DNA of 63,586 nt, counting the filler, from Psammoneis japonica (Eukaryota), in assembly GCA_008632985.1 (NCBI GenBank). It is 5 parts of 5 records of this genome, joined end to end, with 100 filler letters (N's around TTAATTAATTAA, not from the genome) between each part and the next. Parts side by side here need not be neighbours in the genome. Positions count along the whole stretch, not along the records: positions 1 to 15,855 come from QPGO01000168.1; positions 15,956 to 31,900 come from QPGO01000176.1; positions 32,001 to 40,907 come from QPGO01000185.1; positions 41,008 to 54,367 come from QPGO01000210.1; positions 54,468 to 63,586 come from QPGO01000356.1. The stretch is one strand, 5' to 3'. The notes beneath the pieces are model-generated. The model was given only the letters and a program-made list of their open reading frames with translations. It ran no database searches and was not told the origin of the DNA. Made by a program: the position numbers and the translations under genes. Below, in pieces: positions 470 through 58,150 of this stretch. Each line of letters opens with the position of its first letter. The first letter of the stretch is position 1.

Positions 470-3400
470 TTTGTCTTTGTTGCAACTCATGAGCAAACCA
501 GCTCAAATCCACCTTCACTGCTGGACGTTCTGGACTTTTTACAATGTGGGAAAGGTGCATGTTAACTGCATTTACCCAGCAATGCAGAGCCAAGTCACAT
601 GTGCTGGAAATGGTGTCCACTTCAATCTGCTGCTCTTGTTCCAAATGCCCAGCCATGCTGTTGTGGGCTGCATCTGTTGTCAAAAGAATGGAGAAACTGT
701 CTTCATTTGTCATGTCTGAACCTGCACTGCTGCCAGAATCTTGTTCTTCAGCAATGTCTCCACTGTTGTCACCTGCTTGAAATGGGGGCATTCCTTCTTC
801 AGAAGCATCCATTGCAGCCAGCGTGAACTCTTCAAGTTGCTCATCTGATGTGCCACGCAAAACAGCTGTGCACTGAGCATCTGCATCATCTTCTTCAAAA
901 ACAAGCTGGCCAAGTCATTTTGTTGCTGCTCCACTCAACAACAAGTCATTGCCAATTGCAAGTGATTGTCATTGGCCAAACCAATTTTTCATCATNNNNN
1001 NNNNNNNNNNNNNNNNNNNNNNNNNNNNNNNNNNNNNNNNNNNNNNNNNNNNNNNNNNNNNNNNNNNNNNNNNNNNNNNNNNNNNNNNGTGGTTCTTTCC
1101 CATTCTGTTGTCCTTTTCATGTTGTTGATGCAAATCTCATTCCTGCAATTGTGGGTTGGGCAAGCACATTTCACCACTTTGCTGCAACTGGAGTGTGCAA
1201 CCCCATTGTCTCATGCAGCCACTGCCAACGGGGGTGCTTGTGTGCGGTGCATTTTGCAAGGACTTGTCCACCAAAGTTGATCAAGCAGTCTTCTTTTGTC
1301 TTTCCACATTCTTGCCAATTTCTTCAACCACATGAACTGCAACATCATGTCTGCTCCACAAATCATCTGGCAAGGATCCACCAGCTCTTGTGCAGCCAAA
1401 ATTTCCATTGCTTTGCACCCACCAATTGGGGTGATCAACTTTTCCATGATGACTGCACAGGCTTTTTTCCAACTCCTCAATGCAGGAAATGTCTCAGCCA
1501 CAAATTGAAGCTCCATGATTCCATCATGCAACTGCGCCTTGACCGTCAAATTTAAAATGGAGTCATTTCCATCAGTCACATCTGTGTGCAAAAAGACACT
1601 TTGCAGCAGCATTTGCCTGCCCAATCTCAGCAGGTGTTCTGGCACATCTGATGATGCAGGGACAGTGACAAGGTCTTCAACATCTCCAAGTGACTCTGAC
1701 ACAAATGTCGGATCACAATGCAGCCCACTTCTCAAAGTCCAAAAGAAGTTCTCCATGATCTTTTTGTTTTCATTTCTTTTCTTGAACGGAGTGTGACTTG
1801 TTCCGGCAACACATTTTGATGGAAAGCACTTTTCCACAGCTTCAACCAACAGCCAGCCTTGCCATTTTTCTGCTGCATTTGCCAAATCTGCCACTGCTTT
1901 CCAGCTCTCTTTTGCCAAAGAAAGCCATGCAACAGTTGTCCACAATGCACGGGTGTCTGCCAGCATGGCTGTTTCCAACTTGACAAATGGTTGTCGCATG
2001 ACAGGAAAAGCAGCTCTGCATTTGTCAACAGTGGTGACCACAGAGCAACAGTCTTGTCCACAGATGTTTGCATTGAGTGGTCCCCAAACATCCTTCCTCA
2101 GCTCCAAAAGACAAAAGCGCTGAACCATCGTTCTTTGACAAAGATTTTGCTTTGACAGCATCTTCCATTGGAGCAAACATTGAACCTTTTCCATGCATTT
2201 GCCTTGACCTCTCAATCCTTTCCTTGTCACATTTCAAACTCCCCTGTTGCATCTTTTCTTTTACAAGCCACACAGGAATCTTCCTTCCTTCTTGTCCAAG
2301 CAACATGCATGATTTTTCACATCATCTCATCCTGCAATGCATGGTGCATCACAATTCTTTGAAATGATGTTGTGCCCACATTGCGGTCACCTTCATTGCA
2401 CATCATTGCAGAATCAACCCCTCTTCAATGACATGCCATTCAACTCAATTGGAAGGAATTGCTGTGTCAATGAAACCAAACTGTGCGAATGCTCTTCGGG
2501 CGCAAAACTGCAGGAGCAAATTGGTCTGATGAAGAACACATGAGTGGCCCTGTCAGATTTGTTGGCATGTGAATGTGCATGTGTCTGTTGTTTTTTGATC
2601 ATGACACCAGCAATTCAACACAACTGGTCCTTTGCCATCTTTGCATGCCAGAGATGGGGAACAATGCCAGCAATCGTTCGACAAGGTGTCATGGTCAGAA
2701 TCCAAGAAATTTCTGCAAATGCCAGCAAGGAAACCAGGCTCCTTTTGACCACTCACAAAACAAGTGCATTTGTCCACACAATTGAGAAACCATCCAAAGG
2801 TGATGTTGAAAGGAACATCTTGCACCTCGTCAAGAAATTCTGAACATCCCCGCAGATGTTTGACAATTGGTGTGCTGCTTTCATTTTTCATCTGTTGCTT
2901 GCACCAAAAGCAAACATTGCACTCCATTTGTTGCATCCATTCATGCACCCCTTTCCAATGATGCTCGTGCAAAATGAGATTTGGGGCTTGTCAAAGCAAT
3001 CCTTTGAAACTCTGTGAATTTGCAAGATTTTGCTGATCTGCCAAATTTTCCATTCTTGCAACAACAAGCACCAAAGTTTGCACCCATGCCAAACACATGC
3101 TGGCCAACAGTGCCGGCTCAACAAATGATCCTTTTTCATTTTGGGTGGTGCAATCAGCTGCTTGGCATCAATGACAAACAGCCGCCATTGCTTTGCCTTG
3201 AGCATCTCTTGCTTTTAAATTGCTGAACTTCCAGCGGGTTTTGACAACGGCTGAAGACACTTCATGCAATCCCGCATCCCTCACACACAATGTTTTTTCA
3301 GTCTGCACTCCATTTTGAGTCCCGTGGCAACTGCGGCACACTCAAATTTTTTTCACTTCCTTCATCGCAGCAGATTGCTCCGAGACCATGTGCTGTGCTG

Positions 3401-3780
3401 GCATCTGCTGCTTCTTCATCTTCACATTGAGCATCACTCAAATTTGTGCCACTTCTGTCATTCACATCACATCTTCCAATTGGTGCTCCTTTTCCCGACA
3501 AGCTCCGCTTGCAAAGCCATTTGTCGTTTCCTCATTGTGCCACCTGGTTGCTGGCAGTGCGAGCTTCTTTTGACGTTTCTGCACAAAGTTTTCATTTTGT
3601 TTGCAAAGAACTTCCAGCCTTGTCCATTCTCGTCTCCATTGATGCCATGTCCAAATTGCTTTCCATTGTTTGTTTCTCTTTCTTGTGCCATGTTGTAGCA
3701 CGATTGCTCATGCTTGACACAGTGACAAATCTCGTTTTTGTTTCACACATTTTACACAATCAACAACACTGCCTGAATGT
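470..3780 (-). mobile_element. Unclassified degenerate repeat/TE relic with broken minus-strand reading frames; TpA- and largely CpG-depleted
   Basis: Near absence of TA, excess of TG/CA, Cys/His-rich overlapping ORFs in all frames; no recognisable domain; N gap at 996-1088. Confidence 0.55.
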
Positions 3781-7587: not shown

Positions 7588-7899
7588 CACGACAACGTCA
7601 AAGACAGCACTGTCGGCACCATGCAGGAGGTGTAGAATACCGGTAAAGCCAATCGCAATAGTATTTACAGGGTGTAGGGCCGGTTTTGTTTTTGTTGTGT
7701 CGCTCGCTGCACCTTCAGGGGACCCGGAGACGGAGCGCCGTTGACGAAGAGAGAAGAACAGTGAGCCAGCAGAGGCTCGTTCTGGTGACTTGTGGTGCAC
7801 TGCTTCCAAATCAGTCGTCCGACACGGGAACAGCTCATGAGCGAAGAACCCCTGCGTGAGCAGGGGAGGCACAAACCACTCTCTCTTGATGGCCTCCAA

Positions 7900-8850
7900 T
7901 TCTGCGCTGCACCATTGCCTGATGGCGGCTGCCCTCTTTCACTCCCTCCTCCCTTCTTCTCTGTTGTGGCTGCTGGTGCACTCCCTGCAAAGCTTGCTGG
8001 TTGGCTGTGGCACAAGCCATGAGGAGCCAGATCTTGAGCAGGAGAGCTTGTGCCTTCAGGACACCAGAGATGAACTCTTTTCAGAAACCACTGATGATGG
8101 CTCTCCTGAGCTGGGCGACAGTTCTGGGCTGATCTTTTTGCACGCGACGATCACTGAATGCACGCACTCCACCCGCCGTGCGGAACATGACAAAAACCGA
8201 AGTGCTCTTCTCTTCTCGGGTTTTCCGAAAGTGTGCGATGGGGCATTCCAGCATCTCTGCCTTGCAAAGGGTGCCGACAAAAAATGGCGCTGATGCTCCA
8301 ATGCCTGGAGAACCAAGCAGAGCACGGTTTGAATTCCTTTTGAGCGTGTCTTGACGGAAACACCCAAGTGTCCCCTTCATGCAATCACGGATGTAGATTT
8401 GACCCGGCAGGAATTCGTTGTCCGCCAATTTCAGGGGGCAGCATTTTTTCCAGGCTGACAATCTGACTCCCCGCCGACAGGTCAAAACAACCAAACAACG
8501 GTCTGAGGGCTGCCGAGCCAATGTGTGGGAACATGAGATGACAGAAAAAGAAGCGCACCCAAATGGACTCGAACCACGAGTCTCGGAATGCCCGGGGATC
8601 GCACCCGGAGATCAGCTCTAGCCCACCCCTTTCGGAGGGGGATTTTTCTTCAATTGTTTGAACCCCACAGAGGAGATGGTGAGTCTCGCTCCGCACTGAC
8701 TGCCCGTTGAGGCTGGTGGGGCCTCGAACAATCAGACACACTCACACAATGTCGCGGGATTGAAATTGAATCCCTTCCACAGAGGGAAGGTTGTCCGGAA
8801 TGTCGTCATGCTTTGGAGCATCTCTCGTGCCAGAACGAGTTGTCATTGCG
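7900..8850 (-). pseudogene. Degenerate Crinkler (CRN)-like P-loop NTPase
   Basis: IYIRDCM followed by LLGSPGIGAS (Walker A GxPGIGKS with K lost), then FFVGTLCKA and PIAHFRKT; frameshifts; family assigned from recalled motif similarity. Confidence 0.5.
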
Positions 8851-11407
8851 GCCGCTGCTTCTTCTTCCAGGTCCATTTCCGTGGCCGTTCCCCCCATCAA
8901 GCCCTCAGCATCGTCTGTCTTTGCTTTCTTGCTCGTTGTTGGCTGCTGTGCTTGTTGCAGGCGATGCAACTGGAGAAGTGAGACTGCCGAAGCAAGACGG
9001 CTTCGTGCCGCTGCGCTGTGCGCACGCATCACAGCGGTTTGCACGAGAAAACGGTGAGCGTGTTTGTCTGTGTAAAAAACAATCAGGTGCATCACAAATG
9101 TGAGGAATTGGGAATTTGTCAAACGGAAGATCTGTGAAAAATGCACGGGCGGTGTCACCGCACAAAAATGTTTTCTTTCACAGAATGGTCGTCAACATGA
9201 GGTGACGAACGTGAACTGCATTTCATGCAATCCCCCAGACCCAGGAAAAAATGAGATGTGTTGCACTTCATGGTGTCACTGAGGTGATGTGTCATTGTTT
9301 CCTGGGTCTGGGTTGTGCTGATGATGTTGTCATCATCGATGTGGCTGACAATGGCGGATGGAATCTTGCTTGCCGCGTTTCTCCCAGTTCATCTGTGTGG
9401 AATTCCATGCAAAGAATGTGCCAGTTGTTGGCATCAAATTTCTTGGCAGCATCAATGCCGCGGTTGCAACTCCGTCGATCTCAGTTGTTTGCTCGGTGTC
9501 ATGCTTGAAGTGCCTTGCATCCATCGGTTCCCCAACATGTTGAACTGCCGCATTGTGTGGTGTCATTTCCTGAGTGGAGTCGCGCAGACCAAAAATTTGG
9601 TTTTTCAAAACCACTCGGATCAACCATGCGATTTGTTGTCGAGAAATCCACTGTCGGCCGAACAGATCAAGGATCCAGGCGATTCAATCGCAGGACCTCA
9701 GTGATTTTGACTTCTTTGTGATGAAGGAGATGCTCACAGACTGTGACATTAGAATCTTGCTGCAAGAAGGTCACTTTCACAGCTGTTTGCAGGCGAATCC
9801 AAAGTCTTCCGACTCGCCCACAAACAGGACGACATTGAGCCATGGCAAACTCTGTCCAGCAAGCAGCTTGACTCTGATGATGAATTGATGAGAAATCTGC
9901 ACACTTGGTGAAGACATCTGATGCTTGCAAGGGCAGTCTTCAAAGATTGCAACTCTCAAATGCCACTGCAGGTGTGTGCAAGCAAGGTGCATTGTTTGAG
10001 TTGCTGCTTGCAACAGTGTGAGAAGGCCAGGCACCTGGCATTTGAGAATGACCTTTCTCGCCAACTTTGGACTGTGTGCGCCATGTGCAACATGGTGTTG
10101 AGGAACTCAATCAGGTGGTGGATTGTTGTCTTGGGCATTTTGTCACCCCGTCGGCACAGCTTCAGATAGACTGCGACAACATTGGTGCGTGCAATGCTTG
10201 TTGGAGTCTCTGGTGTGCTCAATGACCAACTGCGTCTGCAACACCTCATCCGGGAGTCTTTTGCACATCATGGAATGCGTCAAAGGTGAGCAAAGCGAGT
10301 GTCCTTGTCGGAAAGGTTGTCAACACGACCACAAGAGGCAAGCTCTGCGAAGCGCGGTAAAAAGTGGAACGCGCTTCCGACCCAAAGGTGGCCTCTGGTG
10401 CACAACTGAGAAACGGCGGCTGTGAGTGCAGAACCACTCTAATGACAGAGAAGACCAAGACCCGAGAAAACTTGGTTCCATGCACCTGCAGCCTGCAACA
10501 CTCAGCAGCTCGATCGCACCATGATTCTGGGTGGTGCTTGAACCCTTGCGAAAACTGCATTCTCCGATCCAACAAACACGTGACCAGTTTCGGCTTCCAA
10601 CAGAAACGGTGACACTTGAGACCATCACTGGCATCATGAACAGCAAAGAGAAAATGTGCACTCCAACTTGCATCACCGGAAGCCTCCCGCACCTCGAACG
10701 AGCTGCTGTCTGTCACAACAAACGGAAGATGCTGCTCCGATGCGTTGTGCATGGGCAAAACCTCACTTCTGAATCGAATTTTGAGGGGACAAGCCCAGTG
10801 TGCATCAACCACATGCAATGCGACTCACAAATGACAAAAGAATGTAAAAACAACACTCTCATTGTCTCGGTCCTTTGCCATTGTCATGGTGACATGACAG
10901 CAGGCGGAGATGATAAAAGAGGTGAGAGCTTGGGCAATGAGCACAATTCACTGTTCGCCCCGAAACCGCGCGGTGAAACCGCTGTGGCATGTGGGTGTGG
11001 GCTTGTGCAAGTGATGCATGTCCCTGCTCATGCACAGAAATGCGCAGCAAGGTCCTGTGCATTTTCGATGGCACAGAACCTTGCCACGGGTTTCTGTGCC
11101 ATCTGCGACAAAGCTGCGTAGATTTGTGCCGAAAAAATCTGAGTGCTGTGCGTCTGCGGCAAGATCCACGTGAAAAGATCTTGAAACGTGCCCACCGAGC
11201 CGGCAGTCATGTGCCGGCCATCGTGAAAATTGTGTTGCGTCTGAGAAAGAGTTCGTCAGGGCCGGCGAACAACACACCTCTACGATGTGATTGGTGCAAA
11301 ATCCACGTAAATGCACAGAAACCAACATGTGGCTTCTGTGCAAATTAGAGCTCGTGAAAAACAAGCAGGGACATGCACCCGACGTGTCCGCACAACTGTG
11401 TGCCCAA

Positions 11408-22956: not shown

Positions 22957-24007
22957 GGTTCACAATTTAGTAGCATGCAGAAAACGGCTTGCGTGTGCGC
23001 GGCATAACACCACGAGATCGGGACGAACGAGTCGATCGATTCAAATTTCATCAGAACAACCTCCCGCAGAGTGTCCAAAGATTGTGATGGGCAAAAAGCA
23101 CCAAACGCCAAACACCACCGGAATTTGGTGAATCAACTTGCACTGCAGCTGCATTTTGAATTTGTTTGCGGTTGCACACTGCACCCCAGCGCAAGAGCTC
23201 AATCTTTCTCAGCCTCTCACTCGACCGCCGCCATGTGCACTGGAGATGCTCTGGCATCTTCAAGTCTTTCATGCACTGGCTGCAAACCACACAACACTCA
23301 AACAATGTGCTCAAGGACGTTGCAACAATTTGCACTTAACTTGAACTCTCATCAAAGATCAAAGGCACCTTGCAATCAAAAGAGCTGCTGTGTGAAGATC
23401 TGCCACTCCAGCCAACAAAACTGACACACGCTGGGGCTTGTGCCACCCCCCCCCCCCCCCCCNNNNNNNNNNNNNNNNNNNNNNNNNNNNNNNNNNNNNN
23501 NNNNNNNNNNNNNNNNNNNNNNNNNNNNNNNNNNNNNNNNNNNNNNNNNNNNNNNNNNNNNNNNNNNNNNNNNNNNNNNNNNNNNNNNNNNNNNNNNNNN
23601 NNNNNNNNNNNNNNNNNNNNNNNNNNNNNNNNNNNNNNNNNNNNNNNNNNNNNNNNNNNNNNNNNNNNNNNNNNNNNNNNNNNNNNNNNNNNNNNNNNNN
23701 NNNNNNNNNNNNNNNGGGGGGGGGGTGTCTGCCATTGGTTTGAGGAGATTGACACAGCGCACTGATTTGGTCTCCAGGGGTTCTCTGGTTGCCACACGTG
23801 GCACACAAATGATTGTGTGCCTCAACTGGATTCCAGCAGGGCAAGCTCTTTCTGCATTTTGTCATTTTCATCTGCTCACCTGCTCACCAAAGGCTGCTGT
23901 TGTGCTTGTTTGAGCTGTGAGGTGGTTGATCATCTTGTGTTGTTGGCTGTTTCCATCTTGCACTGTTGGCTGTTTCCAGATGTTTTGTTTGGCTGGGCAG
24001 CTTGCAA

Positions 24008-46240: not shown

Positions 46241-46249
46241 CACCAGTTG

Positions 46250-49200
46250 TTGTGAAAAAGGCAGAGCACAAAAATTAAAAAACATCGGTGTTCAAACATG
46301 AAGAACAGCAGGAGATTGACAATTGGCCAAATGACAAAAACCGTCATGTGCAGACAAGTGGGTTTTAAAACACAGCAACACATTTTTGTCATGTGTGCAG
46401 ACATTGCGATGTCGTGCACTCTGATGCACTGGTTGAGCCAGCATGCAACTTTTGCACTTGCTTGCTGCAGGCAGCCTGGCTGCTGTCTTCCCCAGAGGAT
46501 CAGCTGGAGAGCAGCTTGCCAGCACAGATGGCAACTGGTTGACACCCCAGCAATGGCGACAACAAGCAAGTCCTCAAGCTTTGGCCTTGGAGAAGAAACT
46601 CTTCCCGAGCAGCACATTTGTGGCTTGTCAGCAGGAGGACAACAGCTTTGAGCAGAAGAGCAAGCAGCAAACTTGTGTCACCACACAGCAAACAAGATTT
46701 CATCATGGAAATGCACAGAATGAGTGCACCACTCTGTGGCCAGAAGAGGGAGGTCTGGAATGTGATGATCACAGGACAAGAAGAAAAATGTGGCTCATGT
46801 TCCAAGCTCATGTTGCAGTGCATGTTCTCATTCCCTGTCACACTTCATGGAACAACCACACTCTGATGCCTCAGTCCATGCTCTGAAAAAGGCCTTTTCA
46901 ACTGCAAAGGAAAAACTGGAATGTGTGCACTGAGTTTGCCAAACAAATGGAATGCCCCATGCTCTTGGAGCACATGGCATCTGTCTGCCTGTTCTCTGGC
47001 ATCTGTCTGTCAGCTCAAGAGAGCAGAGTTGCTCTGCCCCCTGGCACTGAGCCATTTTTTCTTCTGCTGAACACATCTTTTTTTTCTGGCAGCCCTGCCA
47101 CTTGACAATGGCAGGCACATGATGCACACCAAAGTGGCAGCCACACTCACTCAACAAGCACGACTCAGTTGCAAGTTTGACAATGGCGCTGCTTGCGCTG
47201 CTGGCATCAAAAAGTGCAGTTTGGTTTGATGCAGTGCCTCACTCTGCTGCAGCATCATGGCCATGCTTGGAGCTTGTGAAGTGAAAAGGATGTGTCACAA
47301 AATGACAATGAAAAGAAAATGTGAGAGACTCAGAAGTTTTGAGAGAACAACAAATCCCTCAGCAGCCAGTGTCCTCCAACTTGCCACAAAGCACAGGTGG
47401 ATGAGCACCCCCTCCACCTCCTCTTGACACTGACTTTCCTCATTGTTGCTGTTTGTTTGATGTGCTTGAAATTGTGCACAATTTTTGCAGGAGCAACAAG
47501 CGCCAAGTGCAGCAGATGACAAGAGAAAAAAGATGCCAATGCAAAGACTCTGCTGCTCCACCATCAATTTGTGCACATGCCACCAACTCAACAAAAATTC
47601 ATGGAATTTTGCAGTGCTTTTCTTCATGCTTTCAAGCAAAAAGTCTTTGTTTCCTCTCAATGTCAACACATCTGAATGGCGCAAAAGAGGCTCAGCACAT
47701 GCGTGCTGATGACCTGGCTCTGTCTCCAATCTTGTGTGATGGGTTCAGCCAAAGCGCACCCACTGTCTTTGTTGTTGAGCCAAACATCAAATGCACGCAT
47801 GCAGACATGAGATCACAGATTGACTTTCCATGGCAAAAACAAAAACACAAAAGTGGTGCACAAAGAAGAAGACAAGAACCAAGAGAAGCAGAGACAAGGC
47901 ACGTGAGACTTGGTCGTGTGCCTCTTTGCTGTTGCCATCACTTCCGGCCTGTTGCAGCCATGGGTGATGAGCAATCCATCATGGGAGAGGCTAATTTTCT
48001 GGACAGTTTGGCACACTCAACTCCTTCAAATTTGAACATTTCAAAAATTGAAAGGTGAGTGCAGACAAAAAACCAAAAGTTTTGTGTGTGATTTGGGAGA
48101 AAACCAATTGTGAACAAGTTCATTGTGCTGAATTGCAAAAACAGGCCAGTGATGGGAATCAAGCCTGTGCATGTCACCTGGAGCTGGGGCAGCATCAAAG
48201 TGCTGGAAGGGCCAGTTGGTTGCAACAACCAGCAGCTTCATTAAAAATGCAGACAATTTTCTTTCCCTTGGCATGGCTCTGCTGTGCAGCAGCAGCTTCC
48301 ACAATTCCATTGCTGATGCACATGTGGTGGAATGCCAGAAGCATCCAAGTGCAGTCTGGCAAACTCATCCATTGTTCATCATGGAGCACAAACAGAATGG
48401 TGGTTGCATGGAGTGTGCTTTTCATGTTCCTTGAGAATCTCCTCACAATCATGGAGTGTGGATGTGCACTCCATGAAAAGTGGCCTCCACGAAATGTGCA
48501 AAAATGGCCTTGTTTCTTGCAGAATGGCTCAGAGGAATGTGAGAAAAAAGGCTTGTTCTGCACACTTCCATGAAGTCTCATTTGCTGCACACACCTTTGC
48601 ACTTGTTTGTTGTGGCATGGCCAGCATGACCACTTGGGTGCTGAGGCCACCAAGGCCTGCATTGAAGTCTGCCAAGAAAATTTCCAGAGTGGGCAAGCCA
48701 TGAGGCCAGCACTTTCTTGCATCTCTGCTTTTGCAAGATGGCAGCCTGGAGCTCCTGAACAAAGGATGAGCAGCAGCAGCAAATTTGAGGTGCACAAGAA
48801 AGCCTTCATTCTGGACAGACAGTGCACATTCATCCAGCCCCCAGATGACTGGGCAGCACTGGCACTCTGGCTTCTGACAGCTTTCAGCATGATGAGGCAG
48901 CTCTGTTGTCTGGAGAGCAGCTTGAACAAATTTGGCAAATGTGCAGCACCAAACCCACAGAGATGACACTCAGACAGAGACGCACACTCAGCAATTGCAA
49001 AATGCAGAGTGAAGCACCAATTTCTTGAGGCTCAAACATTTCTGGCGCACGCTGCTGCACCCAAGCTTTCTCCCATGGCAAGCTCCACATGTGTGGCTGT
49101 TGTGCATGGCTGTTGTGCAAATGCACAGCAACACACTGCCTCAGATGTGTGTGGTGCCATCCTTTTGGCTTTTGTGGCAGACGCCCTTCATGCCGCAACT

Positions 49201-49900
49201 GCGCATGCTTTCAAATGCCAGGCACGTGCCTTCTTGGCCAAGCAGAGAGCTGCGTGCTTGAAACTTTCCTTCTCTTTGGCATTGAGCCATCTCTTTTTGA
49301 TGTTTGGTTGAGTCCCACCCACTGAAATTTTTGCCCAAGGAGTGTGCTGCATGTGGTGCGGGTGCCGAGTGTCGTGGCGTGCCTTGCTTTGGAGCAACTG
49401 CGCTGGAGCTCTTGCTTGGCTGCCATTGTTGTTGACAGCATGGGCACAGAGAGGCCAGTGGCTGCCATCCCTCCCTTGAAAGATGAGGATGCTTCACTCA
49501 AAGATCTGAGAAGCAAAGGCAGGCACCTTTGACATGGCTGGTTGCCACATCCCAACCAGCAGTTAAAACTTGCTTTTCTTTGACCATGTGCTGCGGCATG
49601 CAGGGCGGTTGCATCACCACAGCGCGCCATGCGCAGCGACACGCATGGGCACAGGTTTTCACGCGCCGCAGTTGGTGTGAACACCACAACACTTTTTTTT
49701 GTGAGCGACAATGACAGGCTTGCGTCGCTTGCGCCGTCGCCGTCAATTCTTCATGCAAGGTTAGACACTCATGAGATCATCTCCATTCATTCACATGATG
49801 CACATGCCTTGGCTCTGTCTCGACAAGTGCCGCTGTTTTGATTTTTTGTTTTGCATGTGCTCCTGTCAGTCACGAGTCAACAACCGAGTCTGATTCACGG
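46250..49900. mobile_element. Degenerate TpA-depleted (mostly also CpG-depleted) repeat relic
   Basis: Composition only; no recognisable domain. Confidence 0.5.
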
Positions 49901-49939
49901 ATGACGCTTCCGGTCATGGATCTCTTCTTCTGGAAGAAA

Positions 49940-50167
49940 TGTCCATTGAGTCTTCTAGCGACAGCAATCGGAGTGACACACACGACCGTCAGGTCATGAT
50001 GTCATCTCCAATCCCTCGTGAGATCTTCTCACAATTCGCATCTTCAGCGCATCTCATTGTCCCAAAACTGCTTCTTGTCATCCTCTGTTGTGTTGTGCAA
50101 CCTCAAGAGAGTCCTGAACTCTCCATCCCACACAGTGCATTGTTGCATCCCAAGTGGTTACGACCCC
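49940..50167 (+). repeat. Candidate Copia 5' LTR (49940-50152) and primer-binding-site-like GGTTACGACCCC (50156-50167)
   Basis: TG...CA segment followed by a motif resembling the GGTTATGRGCCC half-tRNAiMet PBS, ~160 bp before the gag ATG; second LTR not in the window. Confidence 0.35.
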
Positions 50168-50328
50168 AATCCACGCACCGGTGTCAACTCCCAATGGAGT
50201 TGCTGCCACTCGTTCGTCTCGTTACAGACGACATCCCATCCAACGGCGATCTTCTGTGTCGCAATCCAACGGCGATCATCTACATCGCAATCCCCACCTG
50301 CTAATCGATCCTCTACATCGAATCATCC

Positions 50329-53300
50329 ATGACCATGTCCATGGATCCTGATGCTGTCAAGATGTTTGCTGAGGCCTTCGCCAAGATGCAAACCTCGACC
50401 AACCCTCCTACGATCCCCACGCCGCTTCGCGGCGGCATCCACCACTCTCATGGAGTGCATCTGGGTGGTTCGGCTCTGAACAACAAGTGCGAGCAGACCG
50501 ACACCCGCACCTGCCGTTTTGCCTCGCAACGTCGCCATCCGAAAGCTGTCGACTCTATCGAGCGATCTCTCAGAGATCAACTCGCTTCGGCAACCACATC
50601 CAAGTTCAACGGCCAGATTGAGTCATCCAACGGTTCCAGTGCTGAACTGGACAAAGACCACTTCGTCAAGACCATTCAGGACTTAATCGAGTCGCACGGA
50701 CAAGAAACTTTCTACCATCTCAAGAAAGTTGACGGCAAGGTCGTGTGCCTTTTTGATCATCTTCACGCCTTCACTGTCAAAGACCTTGAGAAGGAATGTG
50801 AGACCCGTGTGGCGGCCACAGGTGACGAAGGCTACGATCAGTGTGAAATCGATGACATCGGCTCATCACAACTCATCGTCAAGTCGCGTGTCGCCGAAAC
50901 CTTCCGTGAAAAGATTGAAACCAAGTTTGATCACTTGAAGAACTGCAAGGATCTTCCGGGGTCTGTCTCATTTATGATGGCTCTGGATGCCTGCAACGCC
51001 AGTGCTCTGGTTGACGTCAAGGCCGCCAAGGAAAAGTTGAACGACTTAACTCTGGATGCCTGCCCTGGCGAGGACTGCACCGAGCTTGCAACCGAAGCTC
51101 TGCGCCTGCTCAAGATCATGCAGACGGACCATGTGTCACCAGTTGAAACTGGGTCTGCTGTTTTATCTGAGGTGTCAAAGACATCCTCCGAGTTTTTCAA
51201 TTGTCAAGTTTTTGCCAAGCTCGACTCTGTCAAGCGCTTGGAGCGCAAATGTCGCTTGCGTGACCCGGCAGAAGTCCCCAAGGATGCCGACCATGCGGAT
51301 CTTGGACCTGTTGGCCTCATTGGCTGGATCACCAAGACCCACGGCGAACTCATCAGCGATGAAGATTGGCCTGCCTTAGCAGCCAAGCTCCCGGAATCCA
51401 ACCTCGCCAAGGACAACTCGGAAAAGCATTGCTGCGGCTGTGGCAAGGTTGGGTGCACCAAACGCACGTGTCCCACCTGCAAGGAGCAATGCAAGAAGGA
51501 CAAAAAGGGCATGGCGGACAAGTCCAAGGATGACCCTCCGGATGTCCGGAAGACCAACCCTTCCAAGAAACCACCCAAGCCGGCCTGGCGTTTCGTTCAC
51601 AAAGGTGCCACTGTCACCGACGAGAAAGGCACGACCTGGCACTGGTGCGACAAGTGTGTGAACAAGGAAACGGGCAAGAAGGGCATGTGTCAAGGCCACT
51701 CCTCCGCTCAACACACCGGGAAACCGTCTGTCAAAACCGAAACCACCGCTGCGGCAAATTTGTCTGCTGTGTCGGACCCCTCTTTGGGCATTCCTTTTGG
51801 TCCTCCCGAGCAGACGACGTCTCCGCCTACAGACGAACCCTCTGACCCTAACGAGCTGGTTTATTGCGGCATGTGGTGTGCACCTGTGGACGACTCTTTG
51901 AGTTCGACTCCAGTGACCACGACCGTCACGTTCACTCCTGCTCCATCGGCCGAGAGGGAGACTGCCGTGGCCAAACCCGCTCCCATCTTGGTTGAAACGG
52001 TTGACCCCGAAGACGCTGACGATTGCTCCAAGTGCTCTGACGCTCACTCCTCTTTTGACTCCCTGCCGTCAGCTGTCGAGCTATTTCCGGCCTGTGCCAT
52101 GCATGAGATTCAAAATCCGGACGTGTTTTATGACACGATTGCAACTCACGTGGAAGGTCTGTCCGACGACGTGTCAGACGATCTCGTTTCCGGGGCAAGC
52201 ATCCTGCCTTTCGAAGACAGCCACGCGCACTTACCTCCAAGCACCCAGTGTCGCGGTTTCGAATTTTACGATCCCGAACCCCAAGATGTTGATTGTGGCG
52301 TCAAGGAGGCAACGCCGAGCTCTCGTCTTGAGCTTTTCTGGAACTTCTTGAAGCTCCGAGTTTTCTGGCTGTTTGCCATGTTCTGGGAAACGGCACTGCA
52401 CATTTGCTGTGCGCCGATTCCTGTCTTACCTCGTCGTGTGCGCCGCAAGGCATTCATCCCAACCATTCACGGTTTCCCCTCTACCTGGATGGTGCTGACT
52501 GGAGCCATCATGGTCTGGGTGTCTGTTTTCAACAGTCAGCTTCCCACGCATCCATTCTCCAATGTCCCCTCTCGCTTCTCCAAAGCTGGCTCTCAGGTCC
52601 ACTCGATCATTGAAGAACTGGACGACAAGACAGTGTTGGATCCGGGCAGTTTGGTGGAATGCAACAAGATCAAGGCGCGACAAGTGCTCACCGAATTTGT
52701 GGAGCACGATCCGGACCATTGTCTGAGCAAGAAATTCACGCAGCTCTGGGAGAATGACGCATGCTCTTCCCCAGGCCGCTGCATCCCTCCAGCTCTAGAA
52801 GACCCCGAGTCCCACTTCGACACCTGTGATTCAGAGGAAGCCCTCGGCCCGCTCCCGACCGAGCCGAGCCACTGCTTTGATGCGGTTGAGGAGCTCTCTC
52901 CGGACTATTTTCGTTTCGACGAGCTGTCCACCAAGTTTGGTTTCGTGGACACCACTCCATGGCAAGACCCTGTGAAGCTTCTCCAGGCAGCTACTGACGG
53001 AACCGAAGCCCATCCTGCTCATACCTCTGTGCAGGTGTTGACAGGCCAACGTTCTTTAGCACAACTCGCCGCCGACCCGCAAGCTTTGCTGAGCCCAGCA
53101 CATGAGCGCCACACCATCACATGCGACACTGGCGCATCCTTGGCCATTGCTTACGATGAAAACGACTTTGTCGGACCTCTGACGATCCCTGATGGCCCAT
53201 TGAAGCTTGGGGGTCTAGCAAATGGCTTAACCATCGCCAGCATCGGACCCGTCTCCTGGGTTTTCCACAACGAGGACGGCTCTGAGCTCATCGTCAAGAC

Positions 53301-54367
53301 GATGGCGCACCATGTGCCTCAGGCCGGACAACGTCTTCTATCCCCACAACGCCTCTACAGTGAGGAACATGGCGTGACAGGAAAATGTGAGGGAGACGAG
53401 GACTCATTTCGAGTGCATGTTGATGGCGCCGGTTCGCTCAAGGTCGCGCACGCGTCAAATCACTTGCCGGTTGCGTCTGTGACCAACGGGGTGGCACCCG
53501 CTCCTCAAGTCAATCTGTCTGTGTTGCACGAGGACAACCAGAACCTCACCACCGGTCAGAAGCTCCTTCAAGAATGGCACTTCAGGTTTGGTCACCTGAA
53601 TGTGCCACGTGTCCAAGGCCTGCTTCGGGCCGAACCTTTTCTCCGACCCAAATTCAAGCATGCTTCGCGTTGCGACATTCCGCGGTGCGAGGCATGCGAA
53701 CATGCCAAAGGACATCGCCGAACCCTCAAGTCCGCCAAACATGCGGCTACTCCAGAGCGTGAGGGTGCTCTTCGAGCCGAGCATCTACGTCCAGGCCAAG
53801 CCGTCAGCGTGGATCACTTCGAATCCCGTCTCCTCGGCCGAACCTACGACTCCTGCGGGAAGGCCTCGTCCCAGCAATACAAAGGAGGCTGCATTTTTGT
53901 GGATCATGCCTCCGGTTACCCACATGTTGAACACCAACTTGGTTTCTCTGCTGTGGAAACGGTGCGAGCGAAGCAAGCGTTTGAAAAGCACGCGATGGAC
54001 CACGGCGTCATCATCCAAGAATTTCTTGCCGATTCTGGCGCTTTCAAGGCCAATGCTTTTGTGCAACACATGCGACAGCACGAACAACGTCTACGTTTTT
54101 GCGGAACCAACGCCCACCATCAGAACGGCGTCGCAGAACGCGGCATTCGCTCCGTCTCCAACATGGCGAGAGCGATGCTTCTCCACGCATCCATCCGTCG
54201 GAAGGGGGGCATGGACAGCTCTTTGTGGCCTGTGGCCGTGTCTCATGCCACGCACATTTACAACGTGACTCCCAACGCTCAAGGCCACTGCCCCGCGGAC
54301 ATTTTTACCGGCACTGCTGCACCCCGACATCGTCTTCGCGATGTCCACGTCTGGGGCTGTCCGGTTT
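50329..54367 (+). mobile_element. Ty1/Copia (CoDi-like) gag-pol polyprotein: Gag, Zn knuckles, protease, GAG-pre-integrase, integrase; truncated by contig end
   Basis: CCGCGKVGCTKRTC, WHWCDKC, protease DTGAS, LLSPQ, WHFRFGH..CEAC, integrase VSVDH / LADSG / HHQNGVAERGIR, VWGCPV; protease-integrase order indicates Copia. Confidence 0.95.
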
Positions 54368-55348: not shown

Positions 55349-55609
55349 CCAGAGTATTGCGGTGCCAGGAGAAGTATCCTATAGAAATTCTAGAGAATGA
55401 AATGCAAGCATGAGTTGTCTCCTCTTTCTCATCGCCCAGAACCTGACCAACACCACTTTTTTCTCAACACATACGGATATACAATGCGTCTTACGGTTTC
55501 ACTGTAAATTCTTCATCTCTTGGTTACTTGTCGGCGCACGGGTGCACCAAAAATTGTTACCGTCATTGCTGCTGCTTCGTACATACTTGTACGACGATGG
55601 TTTGATGCT

Positions 55610-58150
55610 TGATGGTCATGCACCACTGCACAGCTTGCATGAGGAAGGCATCAAGAACACACCAACATTGGTAAATTCAACAAAGCTGTGTTGCTGGACC
55701 TGGCGGTTTGTGCAGGTGCCGCTCCCTCTTGCCTGGCAGTGCACATGGCCTCTGTGCTTGAGTCCATGCTTGGTTGAGAAAACCAAAGACTGGGGTTTCT
55801 GGACAGAAGCTGAGAAAAGAAAGACAGCAATCTAAGGAAAGAAAGAAAAAGGCTTCCAAGGACACCAAGAAGTTGGAGGCAGCAAAGGCTCCTGCAGCCA
55901 ATTGAATGGAAGTGACCAAGGTTGCAACAGATGAACCGACCAACAAAGAACAAAAAGAAAAGTTCTGGCAGAAGCCACAAGTTGGCAACAACAACTGCAG
56001 CCAAGAGGCACTGCCCTTGGCCAAGGGTCTTGCCATTGAATGCTGTCACACCAAAATTGGCACCATTGTTGAAGTGAAATCTGGTGGTTGTGGTGTCCTT
56101 GCCTTGACAATGTGAGAAGTTGCCAAATGCCACCTGTGGAGCAAGCTTGCGCTGCCAACATTTGAAGCAAAAAATGACTGCACAGCTGCCAAAACATTTG
56201 TTGTGCTGGGTGGCTGTGCTGCAAAAGCGTTGCCCAAAGCCACACTTGACATCAGTTCTTGTTTTGTTTCACACCTCTTCCAGGGAGTGCTCACAATGGG
56301 CAGATGGAAATGCACTGAAAAGAGCAGATTGGATTTTCAATGCACTTGAGCAAGCTTGGAACGCTGCTGTGGTTCAACAAATTTTAAAATTTGTGAGTTC
56401 TGAATGGCTGATGGTGGGTGCAAGGACAGGCAGTGACCAACCTTGTCTTGTTTGGTGATTCTAGATGAGAGCAAGAGGACCATGGCTTGCTGCTCCCCAA
56501 TCTGCTGGCAGCACTGTGGGACAGAGTTGCAGTGGCACCTGGCCAAACCAAGAACAGCAAACTCATTTTTCTCATTTGACAGCGCTGCATCAGAAGCTTG
56601 GTCAGAAGTTGCTGCCAGCAGCTTGTGTGTTCTGACTGCTCCTGGCTTGCTGGGCATGCTCCAGCAGAGCCAGGTGCAAACCCTGCAGACACTTCTCCTG
56701 GATTTGAGAAATGCACATGCACAGCTCATCATTTGTGCTTTGGGTGCAGCATTTTCTGTTGCAAAGAAGCAGCAGCATGTTGTCCAATTGTTTTTTTAAC
56801 AAAGACACAGGGCAGGCACAACACTCATTCTTGGTGCAGCTTTTTCTGCATGGCAATGGTGTGTTTTATTGTTCTGAAGTGACTTCAACAACAGCAGCAG
56901 CAGAGGTGCAATTTTTGACATTCTTTTTCAACTCTGTCATGATGCCAAGAGAGTGACATGCACAGATGCCAATCCAAGAAGTGCAGCAAATCCAGTTGTG
57001 CCACAATCTCAACCACTTTGTGTCAGCAATGTGATGTGAAGAAATCAATTGTCAACATTTCAAAACAGATTTTTCTGTCACAACCCCTTGTCCTGGCATG
57101 AATGACAAAGTTGTTTCCAGGGGCCCCGGAGTTTCTTCAGTGTGCAACCTTGCAGAATCAACAAGCTGCCATTGTTGTCATGGCATTTTCTTCATTCTCA
57201 CAGAGCATGCAACAATTGACATTCAAACTTCAAACTCATTGCTCTGAATCATCATTGGTTGAAAAACAACCCTTCTCCTCATCACTCCTTGCTGCAGTTT
57301 TGCATGTTGTGTGCTGTGCACTCATGTCAAAGAACACATCAAATCAAACACATCATTTTTTCATTGCAGCAGCAACCAGCTGTTTGCAGTGCACTTTCAC
57401 AAACATCCAAATTTTGAAGATGGCAGCAACAATGCAGTGCCTCGATGCACACATGTGGGGGTCTTCTTTGTGCATCAGAGGGTGCTCACATTTGGGCAAC
57501 AATGTTGCGTTTTTGCACTTGTGAGCATGCTGTGAGTTGGGGGCTGTGAAAAATGCACGCATGTTTGTCCACTGTGTGCGTGTGCTTTGACGTGCTGTGC
57601 TGCTGCTGGAGTGCCTTTCTGTGCCCACTGTGGCTCACAAGAAAAGACAGAACATGTGCCAGTTCTCTGTTGGAGGGAGTTTTTGCTTCATTTGGGACAA
57701 GAACACAAGAAACTCTGAGAAGAGAGATTGGGATGGTCGTCTGCTGCATGACCTGGTTGCATGGCATGTGCTGATCTGGCCAAATGCAGAGCAGCAGCCA
57801 CACAAGGGATGACAAATGATGACAAGAAAGCTTGTTCTGCATCACCGAGAGAGAGAGAGCTGTCATTTGTGCAACAATGTGGTGTGCTGGTTGAAAAGTG
57901 CACCACATGACAGAGCTGGGGCTTCCCATTGACACACATGCACTGGTGCCAAAAAGTGGAGTTGTTCATGTGCCCTTGAATGGCTTCAAGGTTGATCCAG
58001 AAGTGCACATTTTGTCAGATGATTTGTGATTCTTTGGAGTGGAGATCAAGATGTCCAGAGCCACACGGAGAATGTTGCTCGAGAACACTTGTTGACTGCA
58101 AGATGCTCTCCCAGAACTTTACTTCTGCCACCTGTTTGAACTCCAGAGAA
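55610..58150. mobile_element. Highly degenerate TpA/CpG-depleted repeat relic between pyruvate kinase and the sulfatase
   Basis: Sharp compositional island; GC-rich CCGCC repeats at the right edge (58160-58235). Confidence 0.6.

Follow-up and report, generated by a model that had tools for sequence, protein, structure and literature searches.

A TpA-erasing pattern in delimited blocks of Psammoneis japonica DNA points to an adenine- or thymine-directed process

INTRODUCTION

RIP of Neurospora and other ascomycetes depends on RID and DIM-2 and converts C:G to T:A, mainly at CpA, with TpA rising and many stop codons arising. Decay of CpG by deamination of 5mC, found preferentially in silenced transposons, removes CpG and cannot remove TpA. 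Hyperediting of the APOBEC3 or ADAR type, a deaminase-driven process in retroelements and viruses, is limited among mobile elements to retroelements and leaves strand-specific clusters on single-stranded cDNA or RNA; the A favoured by ADAR and TadA/ADAT enzymes has U or T on its 5' side, and ADARs are not known outside animals. Mutagenesis by DNA polymerase eta at WA motifs, which include AA, falls on A:T pairs during somatic hypermutation.

How does the pattern described here, found in a 63,586-nucleotide stretch of DNA from Psammoneis japonica (hereafter the window), compare with these systems? It resembles RIP in being transition-heavy mutation within delimited blocks that include transposons, in affecting both strands, in its sharp edges, and in leaving dinucleotides strongly skewed and coding sequence dead. 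Its direction, however, is opposite, as the earlier note on this DNA had claimed: TpA, which RIP raises, here vanishes by A:T to G:C change and stop codons cannot arise, G+C remains near 47-50%, and the pattern occurs in a diatom instead of a fungus. Diatom DNMT4 is described as related to fungal RID and its function as unknown (PMC9998398). With CpG decay the pattern shares the loss of a palindromic YpR dinucleotide to TG and CA, strand-symmetrically and site by site, and CpG decay itself has occurred in part of the present blocks (CG observed/expected ratio, O/E, 0.13); here, by contrast, TA loss is separable from CG loss and faster. The hypermutation of mobile elements recalls APOBEC3- and ADAR-type hyperediting, but here the strands are equal, runs are absent, and a DNA transposon as well as non-coding DNA is included. 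The earlier note knew of no description of such a pattern in diatoms, and a literature search for a TpA-erasing pattern likewise found none.

TA-FREE BLOCKS AND THEIR CONTENT

The window consists of five contigs with N44-TTAATTAATTAA-N44 spacers between them and has four internal N gaps. TpA and CG O/E were calculated per 500-bp window, with the expectation taken from base composition. The features are as follows.

575..3780, no strand given: TA-free, CpG-poor block with an N gap inside (996-1088); TpA 0.00-0.08, CG 0.09-0.41 (501-3500)
7676..11118, no strand given: TA-free, CpG-keeping block; TpA 0.03-0.11, CG 0.54-0.87 (8001-11000)
18672..20715, no strand given: TA-free, CpG-poor block that begins at an assembly gap; TpA 0.00-0.09, CG 0.00-0.18
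23006..25872, no strand given: TA-free block, CpG-poor in the middle and CpG-retaining in its right part, with its right edge within a 32-bp tandem array
25700..26134, no strand given: tandem array of ~32-bp units straddling the edge of the preceding block
32001..34566, plus strand: Helitron Rep/helicase remnant truncated by the contig start; partly TA-depleted, TpA 0.19-0.31
35422..40907, no strand given: TA-free, CpG-poor block reaching the contig end; TpA 0.00-0.19, CG 0.00-0.17
41008..46500, minus strand: TA-free, CpG-keeping block with a broken frame; TpA 0.00-0.12, CG 0.48-0.97
46501..49500, no strand given: TA-free, CpG-poor block; TpA 0.00-0.03, CG 0.03-0.34
49501..54367, plus strand: Copia-type (diatom CoDi-like) retrotransposon truncated by the contig end; partly TA-depleted, TpA 0.10-0.31
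55673..58119, no strand given: TA-free, CpG-poor block between pyruvate kinase and sulfatase genes; TpA 0.00-0.06, CG 0.04-0.21 (56001-58000)

Blocks amounting to ~24 kb hold just 66 TA against 1618 expected from base composition (O/E 0.04-0.05) and TG and CA are raised to O/E 1.5-1.9, whereas 24.6 kb of genic DNA on the same contigs holds 939 TA against 1664 expected (O/E 0.56). The loss of TA, the flooding with TG and CA and the retention of TA in adjacent genes, all asserted in the earlier note, are thus borne out, and its eight intervals hold to within about 100 bp. When pooled, the TA-free CpG-poor class (15.9 kb) has 39 TA against 1102 expected (O/E for CG 0.13, TG 1.86, CA 1.89), the TA-free CpG-retaining class (8.3 kb) 27 against 516 (CG 0.75, TG 1.55, CA 1.50), and an intermediate class (7.3 kb) 82 against 421. 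By 500-bp window, TpA O/E is 0.00-0.11 in 501-3500, 8001-11000, 18672-20500, 23001-25500, 41008-49500 and 56001-58000, and also in 35501-41000 but for three windows at 0.13-0.19 (36001-36500 and the last kilobase, 40001-41000); the value is 0.21 in 25501-26000, while genic DNA ranges over 0.24-1.11 and the two stretches 32001-34500 and 49501-54000 over 0.10-0.31.

The edges are sharp, the change occurring within <50 bp (about tens of bases). TA recurs roughly every 10 bp up to 35421, the next one lying only at 36027; none occurs between 7675 and 8394 or between 20343 and 20716, the latter marking the right edge of block 18672..20715. Around and within block 575..3780, TA is found at 573, 1553, 2262, 3216 and 3696; at the left of 23006..25872 it is found at 23005 and then 23337; and for 55673..58119 it occurs at 55672 and 55833, then from 56385 to 56867, then at 58120, the flanking genes there giving Pfam matches to PK and Sulfatase. 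Tyr makes up 0-0.95% of translated ORFs in the blocks but 1.0-4.4% of the eight genic ORFs that were looked at, in line with the claim that genes keep their Tyr codons.

What are these blocks? Two of the 10 are recognisable transposable elements, one contains a large ORF whose family is unnamed, and seven are without detectable homology, so that the proposed restriction to transposons is supported only in part; the Gypsy element that the earlier note listed beside these two was not found. No protein homology was detectable in 575..3780, in which an ORF on the minus strand (1214-2233) has 0% Tyr and relatives of similar length were not found, nor was any homology detectable in 35422..40907 or in 46501..49500, which also lacks a Pfam match. 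The ORFs of 7676..11118 gave no Pfam match except DUF5375 (9959-10267), which at only 16.7 bits was taken as chance.

DIRECTION OF CHANGE IN CODING REMNANTS

The Copia element has an open frame of 1354 codons (50305-54366), with homology beginning at 50575 (50575-54366 by blastx against P0001 residues 2-1277, 41.8% identity) and 228 relatives, the named ones from Fragilaria crotonensis. Of 28 conserved Tyr in this polyprotein, 5 are kept, whereas other residues are kept at 488 of 830 positions (p 1.9e-5), and among the lost Tyr nine have become His and five Cys; over residues 700-1354, for which there are 23 relatives, the figures are 3/14 against 282/377 (p 6.5e-5). The Helitron remnant contains a PIF1 domain (E 4e-13) and aligns over 32002-34566 with P0164 residues 158-1011 (blastx, 44.5% identity); its relatives carry Helitron_like_N and PIF1. 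Only 2 of 12 conserved Tyr are kept, against 198 of 281 other residues (p 2.6e-4), and the other 10 have all become His (six) or Cys (four). The unnamed family is represented on the minus strand by ORFs at 44121-45632, 42970-43923 and 42470-43162, a broken frame of a protein of ~1100 residues, with blastx matches to P0158 residues 522-1064 and P0121 residues 1-365. Compared with P0121 (58% identical), none of 19 Tyr is kept (now 8 His, 7 Cys, 3 Phe and 1 Ile), whereas 6/6 Trp and 14/16 Phe are. A Pfam scan of the relatives of this ORF found no family in 10 of the 11 scanned, nor in P0158; P0123 alone has three Pfam families (SdrD_B and two others).

Because conserved Tyr has become His or Cys in three unrelated coding remnants, as expected of TAY turning into CAY or TGY, comparison with relatives shows that the TA-poor state is derived and that the direction is TA to TG/CA, which upholds the polarity the earlier note had put forward. 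By the genetic code such change eliminates every Tyr codon, removes TAA and TAG and creates no stop, so that its further claim of missense rather than nonsense damage holds too.

Could the elements instead have been TA-poor from the start, or have come in from a donor that avoids TA, for example a virus? Sharp edges would also suit an insertion of foreign DNA; this reading is nonetheless highly improbable, given the Tyr replacements in three unrelated protein families and a pattern common to unrelated element classes. Furthermore, the related Copia loci found in metagenomes (80/80) have normal TA, at TpA O/E 0.36-0.88, and only 2 of the 1477 500-bp windows across them lie under 0.2, although this search would miss hypermutated copies elsewhere because its motifs contain Tyr and His. 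The tandem array at 25700..26134 also speaks against it: from 25873 rightwards there is one TA per unit and leftwards there is none, three clear units inside the block reading GTTTGCA and six outside TTTGTA. The contrast of GCA inside with GTA outside a single array speaks for a process that acts in place. The three inside units may stem from a single change rather than three. Finally, positions 2746-2747 are CA in another read-derived contig and TG in the window, as expected if the same ancestral TA had mutated separately in each of two copies or alleles.

STRANDS, SITES AND READS

Both strands are affected equally, site by site and without strand-coordinated runs: TG and CA number 1857 and 1866 overall, runs tests give z of -1.6 to +2.3, and block 35422..40907 alone has 636 TG and 629 CA (z -0.70). 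The both-strand action claimed in the earlier note is thus supported, His and Cys both being frequent. These features bear on the idea that transposon transcripts were edited from A to I by an ADAR- or ADAT-like enzyme with a 5' U preference, then reverse transcribed and reinserted. The preference for A after T or U matches that of ADAR and TadA/ADAT, but editing of sense RNA would yield Tyr to Cys only, whereas in Copia His (9) exceeds Cys (5) and TG:CA is ~1:1; the Helitron, which transposes as DNA, is equally affected, as is non-coding and unidentifiable DNA, and one block edge lies within a tandem array. Because the strands are equal, runs are absent and a DNA transposon is affected, this route does not fit, and we regard it as barely credible.

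RTAY, the preferred site, has been wholly erased, and TTAA withstands the process best: the residual 66 TA include 22 TTAA, 15 CTAA/TTAG and no ATAC, ATAT or GTAC, three contexts that make up 33% of genic TA. DNA polymerase eta also makes A to G changes with TA as its hottest context, yet here AA/TT is not depleted (O/E 1.23 in blocks against 1.17 in genes) and loss is near saturation.

Is the pattern perhaps an artefact of sequencing or assembly, or a misreading of modified A or T in DNA that really carries TA? Misreading of base modifications specific to heterochromatin has precedents in other protists, and the reads, from which contigs were built, are public and all from one sample of one study. 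Against this, top- and bottom-strand reads would conflict at every site, breaking assemblies or giving strand-coordinated runs, whereas TG and CA are finely interspersed and the second read assembly is identical to the window, with no difference at all, along stretches of 1130, 1290 and 598 bases, one of them (1230-2359) lying inside a TA-free block. This match is not independent support because the assembly may itself derive from that sample. In 2385-3658, a TG/CA swap accounts for only one pair among the 27 differences listed, and the N gaps, by our own reading, suggest short-read scaffolding rather than a nanopore-only assembly. We therefore hold an artefact to be very unlikely.

TA LOSS, CpG LOSS AND THE TRIGGER

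TA loss is separable from CpG loss because some blocks have a TA O/E of 0.05 while CG is still at 0.75, which agrees with the distinction from CpG decay drawn in the earlier note. In a simulation, turning TA (and CG) into TG/CA in the genic DNA of the window reproduces the observed TG and CA values: CA 1.54, TG 1.57 and GC 50.6% in the CpG-retaining class (observed 1.50, 1.55 and 50.0%), and CA 1.86 and TG 1.89 in the CpG-poor class (observed 1.89 and 1.86). The simple model fails for GpC, whose excess in the CpG-poor class is 1.40 observed against 1.04 simulated. If the blocks began with a composition like that of genes, ~9% of TA and ~79% of CG survive in the CpG-retaining class and ~35% and ~87% in the intermediate class, and on the same assumption TA disappeared at some 7-10 times the rate of CpG.

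In the window, a duplicated gene segment of 1.45 kb (91%) and another of 0.77 kb (99%) both retain their TA, so that, unlike RIP, the process is not set off by duplication alone. At 80% likeness, block 1089-3553 is not visibly multi-copy because its summed contig depth (113-221) equals that of neighbouring genes (151-186); the summed depth of 10949-13413 is 10-20x higher, yet its TpA O/E is 0.28-0.82.

These observations also allow a passive by-product, in which a base modification or repair mode confined to heterochromatin (a symmetric mark on A or T of TpA, for instance, or error-prone gap filling) would make TpA hypermutable, as 5mC does CpG, and TA would decay slowly in any long-silenced DNA, transposon or not. 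Such decay would be consistent with interspersed TG and CA without strand runs, with depletion that is graded from intermediate in Copia and Helitron to complete in unrecognisable relics, with one affected block whose ORF family is not recognisably transposon-related, and with the sparing of gene duplicates. Arguing the other way are the ~7-10 fold lead of TA over CpG loss, and a completion of ~95% with tetranucleotide preference, which would need a very large site-specific rate; a Pol-eta type WA signature, moreover, is excluded because AA is not depleted. The Copia frame, open over 1354 codons with ~80% of its conserved Tyr gone, suggests fast action, but this is weak evidence because TA to TG/CA creates no stop codons. 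Altogether, we think a passive by-product possible but rather unlikely. Set beside the explanation below, it would differ chiefly in its purpose, and both could rest on one chemistry.

A CANDIDATE TpA-DIRECTED PROCESS

The explanation we favour, with moderate confidence, is an in-place, DNA-level process that converts A:T to G:C at TpA in delimited blocks until almost no TpA is left, the affected blocks including the Copia retrotransposon, the Helitron and several unidentifiable relics. Of the interpretation in the earlier note, which is partly supported, this retains the both-strand A:T to G:C change, while genome defence and silencing of the blocks stand as proposals. Change of the A on one strand would give TpG and of that on the other CpA. 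The rate excess and the tetranucleotide specificity suggest that an enzyme is at work, either directly or by placing a base modification; candidates may be a TadA/ADAT-like adenine deaminase working on DNA, thymine oxidised or hypermodified so that it mispairs with G, or adenine that is marked symmetrically at TpA and then deaminates. Targeting would presumably follow a silencing mark, be it DNA methylation, a histone modification or small RNA, and not the duplication of a sequence. The pattern thus points to an adenine- or thymine-directed process aimed at transposon-derived and unidentified DNA, by which mobile elements would be permanently inactivated as catalytic tyrosines, TATA-type promoter elements and AATAAA signals are lost.

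Depletion of TpA in delimited blocks

The depletion of TpA from the blocks is real and striking. In 500-bp windows, the observed/expected ratio (O/E) of TpA lies at 0.00-0.11 in most of the stretches singled out by the earlier note, with three windows of 35501-41000 reaching 0.13-0.19, and at 0.10-0.31 in two further stretches; genes give 0.24-1.11. When the windows were pooled into four classes for dinucleotide counts, TpA O/E in the two TA-free classes was 0.04-0.05 against 1.5-1.9 for TpG and CpA, so that the proposal of blocks poor in TA and rich in TG and CA is borne out by sliding windows and pooled counts alike. The G+C content is 47-52% in all four classes.

Dinucleotide composition of the four pooled classes (CG, TG and CA as O/E)
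TA-free, CpG-poor: 15.9 kb; TA 39 against 1102 expected; CG 0.13, TG 1.86, CA 1.89
TA-free, CpG-retaining: 8.3 kb; TA 27 against 516 expected; CG 0.75, TG 1.55, CA 1.50
Intermediate: 7.3 kb; TA 82 against 421 expected; CG 0.81, TG 1.46, CA 1.33
Genic: 24.6 kb; TA 939 against 1664 expected; CG 0.94, TG 1.18, CA 1.14

The edges of the blocks are less than 50 bp wide. At the edge at 35421, TA is spaced at roughly ten bases as far as the boundary and next appears only at 36027, and it is absent altogether between 7675 and 8394 and between 20343 and 20716. The segment 34466-35421, very rich in TA and low in G+C (36-44%, TpA O/E 0.80-0.85), directly adjoins the partly depleted Helitron on one side and a fully TA-free block on the other and forms the sharpest contrast in the window. 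The 63,586 bases are made up of five contigs, with N44-TTAATTAATTAA-N44 spacers between them and four internal N gaps; all four gaps lie inside or border TA-poor blocks, and four of the ten contig ends fall within such blocks, as repeats bring about in short-read assemblies. The genic stretches code for ordinary eukaryotic proteins, among them:

family-A DNA polymerase with 5'-3' exonuclease
COG6
valyl-tRNA synthetase arm
pyruvate kinase
three sulfatase segments
EF-hand protein

Identity of the blocks

What kind of DNA has lost its TpA? Homology searches recovered the following features:

49501-54367: Copia-type element; open frame aligned to residues 2-1277 of the 2100 of P0001, a Copia polyprotein relative (blastx)
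32001-34566: Helitron Rep/helicase remnant; PIF1 domain, E 4e-13
41008-46500, minus strand: protein of an unnamed family, about 1100 residues, broken by frameshifts; 58% identical to its relative P0121

Judged by the homology of its polyprotein to Copia gag, protease and integrase, the first of these is a Copia-type LTR retrotransposon. Relatives at E<=1e-3 number 228 (those listed are the top 120, extending down to 3e-83); they carry gag-pre-integrase and RVT_2 domains, with precomputed Pfam families including PF13976 and PF07727, and every relative bearing an organism name comes from the diatom Fragilaria crotonensis; the reverse transcriptase part falls past the contig end. The second is identified as a Helitron by its PIF1-type helicase and by relatives with Helitron_like_N, many of the 120 listed combining PF14214 with PF05970; its Rep part and termini were not recognised or fall beyond the contig. 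The C-terminal part of the unnamed-family ORF matches P0158, a further relative. No Pfam family was found in 10 of the 11 scanned relatives of this ORF or in P0158, the lone relative with Pfam families being P0123, which has three, one of them SdrD_B-like. A resemblance of P0158 to phage amino-acid:DNA transferase clusters (best atlas score 0.75) was set aside as lying below the level where chance matches are common.

Neither Pfam nor blastx nor tblastx detected any homology in the remaining seven blocks, and a protein search among proteins of similar length returned no relative of the ORF at 1214-2233 (minus strand) at E<=0.01. The Pfam scan covered the 184 stop-to-stop ORFs that lie within blocks and are 90 aa or longer, out of 262 window-wide, and matched only the Helitron PIF1/AAA domains, a weak gag_pre-integrase and the flanking pyruvate kinase; matches to DUF5375 and SPC12 (16-18 bits) were taken as chance. 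No Gypsy, reverse transcriptase or integrase domain occurred among the 184 block ORFs, and the Gypsy element named in the earlier note was accordingly not reproduced. No pair of LTRs or terminal inverted repeats was found in five block regions and no Rfam match in the window, whose self-comparison yielded five off-diagonal pairs by blastn, none of them between TA-poor blocks, and no credible match between blocks by tblastx. The same note had also held the depletion to be confined to transposons. A transposon origin is plain for the Copia and Helitron blocks, whereas seven blocks have no detected homology and one carries the unnamed family; with only two certain transposon blocks, the restriction is therefore only partly shown.

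Direction of the change

Since every tyrosine codon (TAY) holds a TA, conserved tyrosines polarise the change.

Fate of conserved tyrosines in the blocks
Copia, columns with the same residue in at least half of 8 full-length relatives: Tyr retained in 5/28, other residues in 488/830 (Fisher p 1.9e-5); lost Tyr replaced by 9 His, 5 Cys, 5 Phe, 2 Leu, 1 Glu, 1 Ser
Copia, residues 700-1354, 23 relatives: Tyr 3/14, others 282/377 (p 6.5e-5); lost Tyr replaced by 6 His, 2 Cys
Copia, 109 relatives, 80% threshold: Tyr 2/6, all columns 149/162
Helitron helicase, 60 relatives: Tyr 2/12 against 198/281 (p 2.6e-4); the 10 lost Tyr replaced by 6 His and 4 Cys, nothing else
Unnamed-family ORF against P0121: Tyr 0/19 (8 His, 7 Cys, 3 Phe, 1 Ile); Trp 6/6, Phe 14/16
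Unnamed-family ORF against the more distant relatives P0158 and P0122: no Tyr retained

The replacement of TAY by CAY or TGY at conserved tyrosines supports the direction TA to TG/CA put forward in the earlier note, and other changes in the Copia frame, at codon borders or in NTA codons, match it too, for example t|ACN to t|GCN (Thr to Ala), ATA to ATG or ACA, and GTA to GCA. Could the blocks simply have been TA-poor from the outset? An ancestral TA-poor composition was rejected, as tyrosines conserved in relatives have been lost here, and these alignments show that the TA-poor state is derived, and derived within this lineage. TpA O/E is 0.36-0.88 in every one of 80 related Copia loci drawn from environmental metagenomes, and among the 1477 500-bp windows of these loci just two are lower than 0.2, although mutated copies elsewhere would escape such a search, the motifs of which hold Tyr and His. 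An alignment of relatives was needed to find these loci; the single mutated Copia sequence gave 48 pattern matches and no relative. Four of the loci (L012, L029, L055 and L004) combine a CpG O/E of 0.22-0.32 and raised TG/CA with a TpA O/E of 0.40-0.56, the usual range for these loci, which means that CpG decay without TA erasure is the common state of the relatives.

What does such a change do to a coding sequence? By the genetic code, conversion of TA to TG or CA removes every Tyr codon, leaves TGA or CAA/CAG in place of TAA and TAG, and cannot generate a stop. Block ORFs contain 0-0.95% Tyr and 6.3-13.3% Cys plus His, the eight genic ORFs 1.0-4.4% and 1.7-7.3%, respectively, and the Copia frame is open over 1354 codons. 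The genetic code and the loss of Tyr thus support the suggestion that the damage is by missense and not by nonsense change. Profile searches fail in the fully depleted blocks: Pfam is blank in seven of the ten, and in the other three it gives PIF1-type helicase domains, one weak gag and two likely chance matches.

Properties of the process

Both strands are equally affected (TG:CA = 1857:1866). For the order of TG and CA in the blocks, runs tests give z between -1.6 and +2.3, much as in genes, with no strand-coordinated clusters. This bears on RNA hyperediting of the ADAR/ADAT type followed by reverse transcription and retrotransposition, which would also turn A into G; however, editing of this kind acts on the transcribed strand only, in clusters and solely in retroelements, and the change of Tyr to His in the Copia frame is an opposite-strand change. 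This route was rejected given 9 His against 5 Cys in Copia and no strand runs, and it is contradicted also by the Helitron (6 His, 4 Cys). In the blocks, AA/TT reaches an O/E of 1.23-1.27, compared with 1.17 for genes; mutagenesis by Pol-eta at WA motifs, which would hit A after A as well as after T, is excluded because AA/TT is not depleted, and GC-biased gene conversion was rejected because it is not dinucleotide-specific.

The 66 TA that remain in the 24 kb of TA-free blocks include 22 TTAA, 15 CTAA/TTAG and 12 GTAA/TTAC, and no ATAC/GTAT, ATAT or GTAC, contexts that make up 33% of genic TA. It follows that RTAY is the first context to go and YTAR the last. If the blocks started out with a gene-like composition, about 35% of TA and 87% of CG are left in the intermediate class, about 9% and 79% in the CpG-retaining class, and about 6% and 14% in the CpG-poor class. 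From these shares, TA is lost roughly 7-10 times faster than CpG, and the order of loss is TA, then CpG, then recognisable coding sequence.

A simulation in which TA, with or without CG, was randomly changed to TG or CA in the genic DNA of the window comes close to both TA-free classes. For the CpG-retaining class it gives CA 1.54, TG 1.57 and G+C 50.6% against 1.50, 1.55 and 50.0% observed, and for the CpG-poor class CA 1.86 and TG 1.89 against 1.89 and 1.86. GpC behaves differently in the CpG-poor class, its O/E being 1.40 observed, 1.04 simulated and 0.99 in genes. CpG-poor blocks such as 35501-40907 show an excess of AGC/GCT, GCA/TGC and GCC/GGC and a deficit of GGA/TCC and ATC/GAT, and the trinucleotide comparison with the simulation revealed no clear second motif behind the GpC excess.

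Sequence comparison shows that the process acts in place. A 32-bp tandem array spans the right edge of the block 23006-25872, with three clear units inside the block reading GTTTGCA and six outside reading TTTGTA, though the inside units may share one event. At 2746-2747, the window has TG where another contig has CA, as expected if one ancestral TA had mutated independently in two copies or alleles.

Sequencing reads and the question of artefact

Might the depletion have arisen during sequencing or assembly? Run X1, from one public sample, contains 0.87 of the sampled words of the window, and independently built X1 contigs show no differences to the window over 1230-2359, which lies in a TA-free block, 6371-7660 and 9883-10480. 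Since this sample may be the source of the assembly itself, the match rules out an assembler quirk only; a library-level effect could still contribute. The notion of a modified base misread by the sequencer was rejected, the two assemblies being identical over these stretches and TG and CA finely interspersed: a modified TpA read as TG on each strand would make reads from opposite strands clash at each site, giving either broken contigs or long strand-coordinated runs, neither of which was observed.

Of about 960 differences between the window and read-derived contigs, 40 are listed and 39 tabulated. Among the 27 listed for the block 2385-3658, 14 are exchanges between CpG and TpG/CpA, and only one adjacent pair is a TG/CA swap. 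In the flank 4061-4445, five of the 12 listed differences have TA in the window and CA or TG elsewhere, with none in reverse (921 further differences are unlisted), a bias that hints at continuing activity. This flank lies in a 371-codon ORF at 3908-5020 beside a TA-free block, with low TpA (0.24-0.37), a normal Tyr content (2.2%) and no Pfam match, and a read-derived contig over 4173-6369 differs from the window at 48 sites; the pattern over 3908-5020 may reflect spilling of the process into the flank or a more mutated allele.

Two further runs, X2 and X3, were not counted as evidence; X2 has no cover over 1089-5032 and 9963-10948, and X3 contributed no contig. One X2 contig joins across 82 and 77 bases of the window (5892-5975 and 6318-6396) in the DNA polymerase / 5'-3' exonuclease gene, with ends CT..AC on the plus strand, i.e. 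GT..AG on the minus strand, and X2 therefore resembles spliced cDNA, though it is not recorded as RNA.

Duplicates and copy number

Duplication alone is not the trigger. The tandem sulfatase duplicates (58628-60077 and 60102-61550; 1450 bases, 91% identical) differ at 126 sites with an ordinary spectrum of 79 transitions and 47 transversions, including 25 CpG-type changes, and exchanges between TA and TG/CA in either direction account for 17 of the 79 transitions (22%), about the chance share by estimate. The direct repeat 15956-16726/16918-17687 (about 770 bases, 99.2% identical) has three differences, all transversions, and may stem either from a very recent duplication or from faulty assembly.

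Summed depth, which is not the same as copy number, is 113-221 over the block 1089-3553 and 151-186 over neighbouring genes, i.e. single-copy-like. Over 10949-13413 it reaches 1600-3050 in X1, whereas most of the remaining contig has about 110-240, with a maximum of 400 at 8977-10948; in X2 it is likewise very high over 11935-13413 (778-1481). Despite a depth 10-20 times higher, this region keeps a TpA O/E of 0.28-0.82 and is not erased. It has many listed indels and joints and an inverted protein-level repeat (11345-11614/11691-11960). As far as summed depth can tell, 10949-13413 may hold an expressed family present in many copies and spared from TA erasure. Both depth results weigh against the reading of the blocks put forward below.

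Comparison with known systems

RIP changes C:G to T:A mainly at CpA, raising TpA and lowering CpA and TpG. The blocks are its opposite, with TpA at 0.04-0.05 and TpG/CpA gained, just as the earlier note had it. RIP acts before meiosis and depends on cytosine methyltransferases of the RID or DIM-2 type. It is triggered by linked or unlinked repeats longer than a few hundred bases, whereas here gene duplicates are spared and the TA-poor blocks are mutually dissimilar. What the two have in common is mutation of both strands, confinement to blocks and sharp edges. According to PMC9998398, diatom DNMT4 is related to fungal RID and has no known function; that enzyme concerns cytosine and not the change seen in the blocks.

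Decay of methylated CpG to TpG/CpA would fit the CpG-poor class, with 114 CG against 892 expected, but not the signature as a whole: blocks with a CG O/E of 0.75 already have TA at 0.05, and CpG decay fails to explain the loss of TpA, which C-to-T changes cannot remove. To our knowledge, all heritable, targeted hypermutation of mobile DNA is cytosine-based (RIP, 5mC decay, APOBEC editing), and we know of no natural, block-limited and near-saturating chromosomal conversion of A:T to G:C at a defined dinucleotide, nor of a family under which a process that erases TpA could be filed. A search of the main texts of openly available articles met with no account of transposons losing TpA, whether in diatoms or in other organisms, and a look-up of terms in two papers on diatom transposable elements (PMC2806351, 10.1101/2025.10.24.684338) met no mention of it under those terms.

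Mechanism and significance

The process operates on DNA, in place and within block limits, and converts A:T to G:C specifically at TpA with a preference for RTAY. Its rate and specificity would require an enzyme, acting either directly or by placing a base modification. The pattern could come from any of three chemistries: A could be deaminated to hypoxanthine; T could be oxidised or hypermodified and then pair with G; or a symmetric adenine mark at TpA could deaminate, by analogy with 5mC at CpG. As TA is self-complementary, the three are indistinguishable here. Deaminases of the TadA/ADAT type have A after U as their natural target. Targeting is probably directed by a silencing mark, as argued by the sharp edges, the co-occurring CpG decay and the sparing of gene duplicates.

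The evidence base is one window, one sample and two certain transposon blocks. In such genomes, transposon relics escape profile searches, and long spurious open frames arise in the relics because TAA and TAG vanish; bias is to be expected in repeat annotation, gene prediction and the dating of transposable elements by CpG or Kimura distance. The loss of TA relative to that of CpG provides a second molecular clock for ordering insertions. If driven by an enzyme, the process would imply a natural DNA adenine deaminase, or a new symmetric TpA modification with its writer and possibly its maintenance, either of which would be of interest to epigenetics and genome-editing research.

A genome-defence function would be a plausible reading of TpA erasure. 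We put forward tentatively, as a possibility with the balance somewhat against it, that this diatom lineage possesses a dedicated adenine (or thymine) defence mutator that rewrites every RTAY/TpA on silenced mobile DNA to TpG/CpA. The candidate would be a DNA adenine deaminase derived from TadA/ADAT or, alternatively, an enzyme that places a symmetric base mark at TpA, later read as G:C. Working on the chromosomal copy and on both its strands, the mutator would erase all Tyr codons along with TATA elements and AATAAA signals, yet introduce no stops. If true, this would be a natural counterpart of the laboratory adenine base editors and the chemical mirror of RIP.
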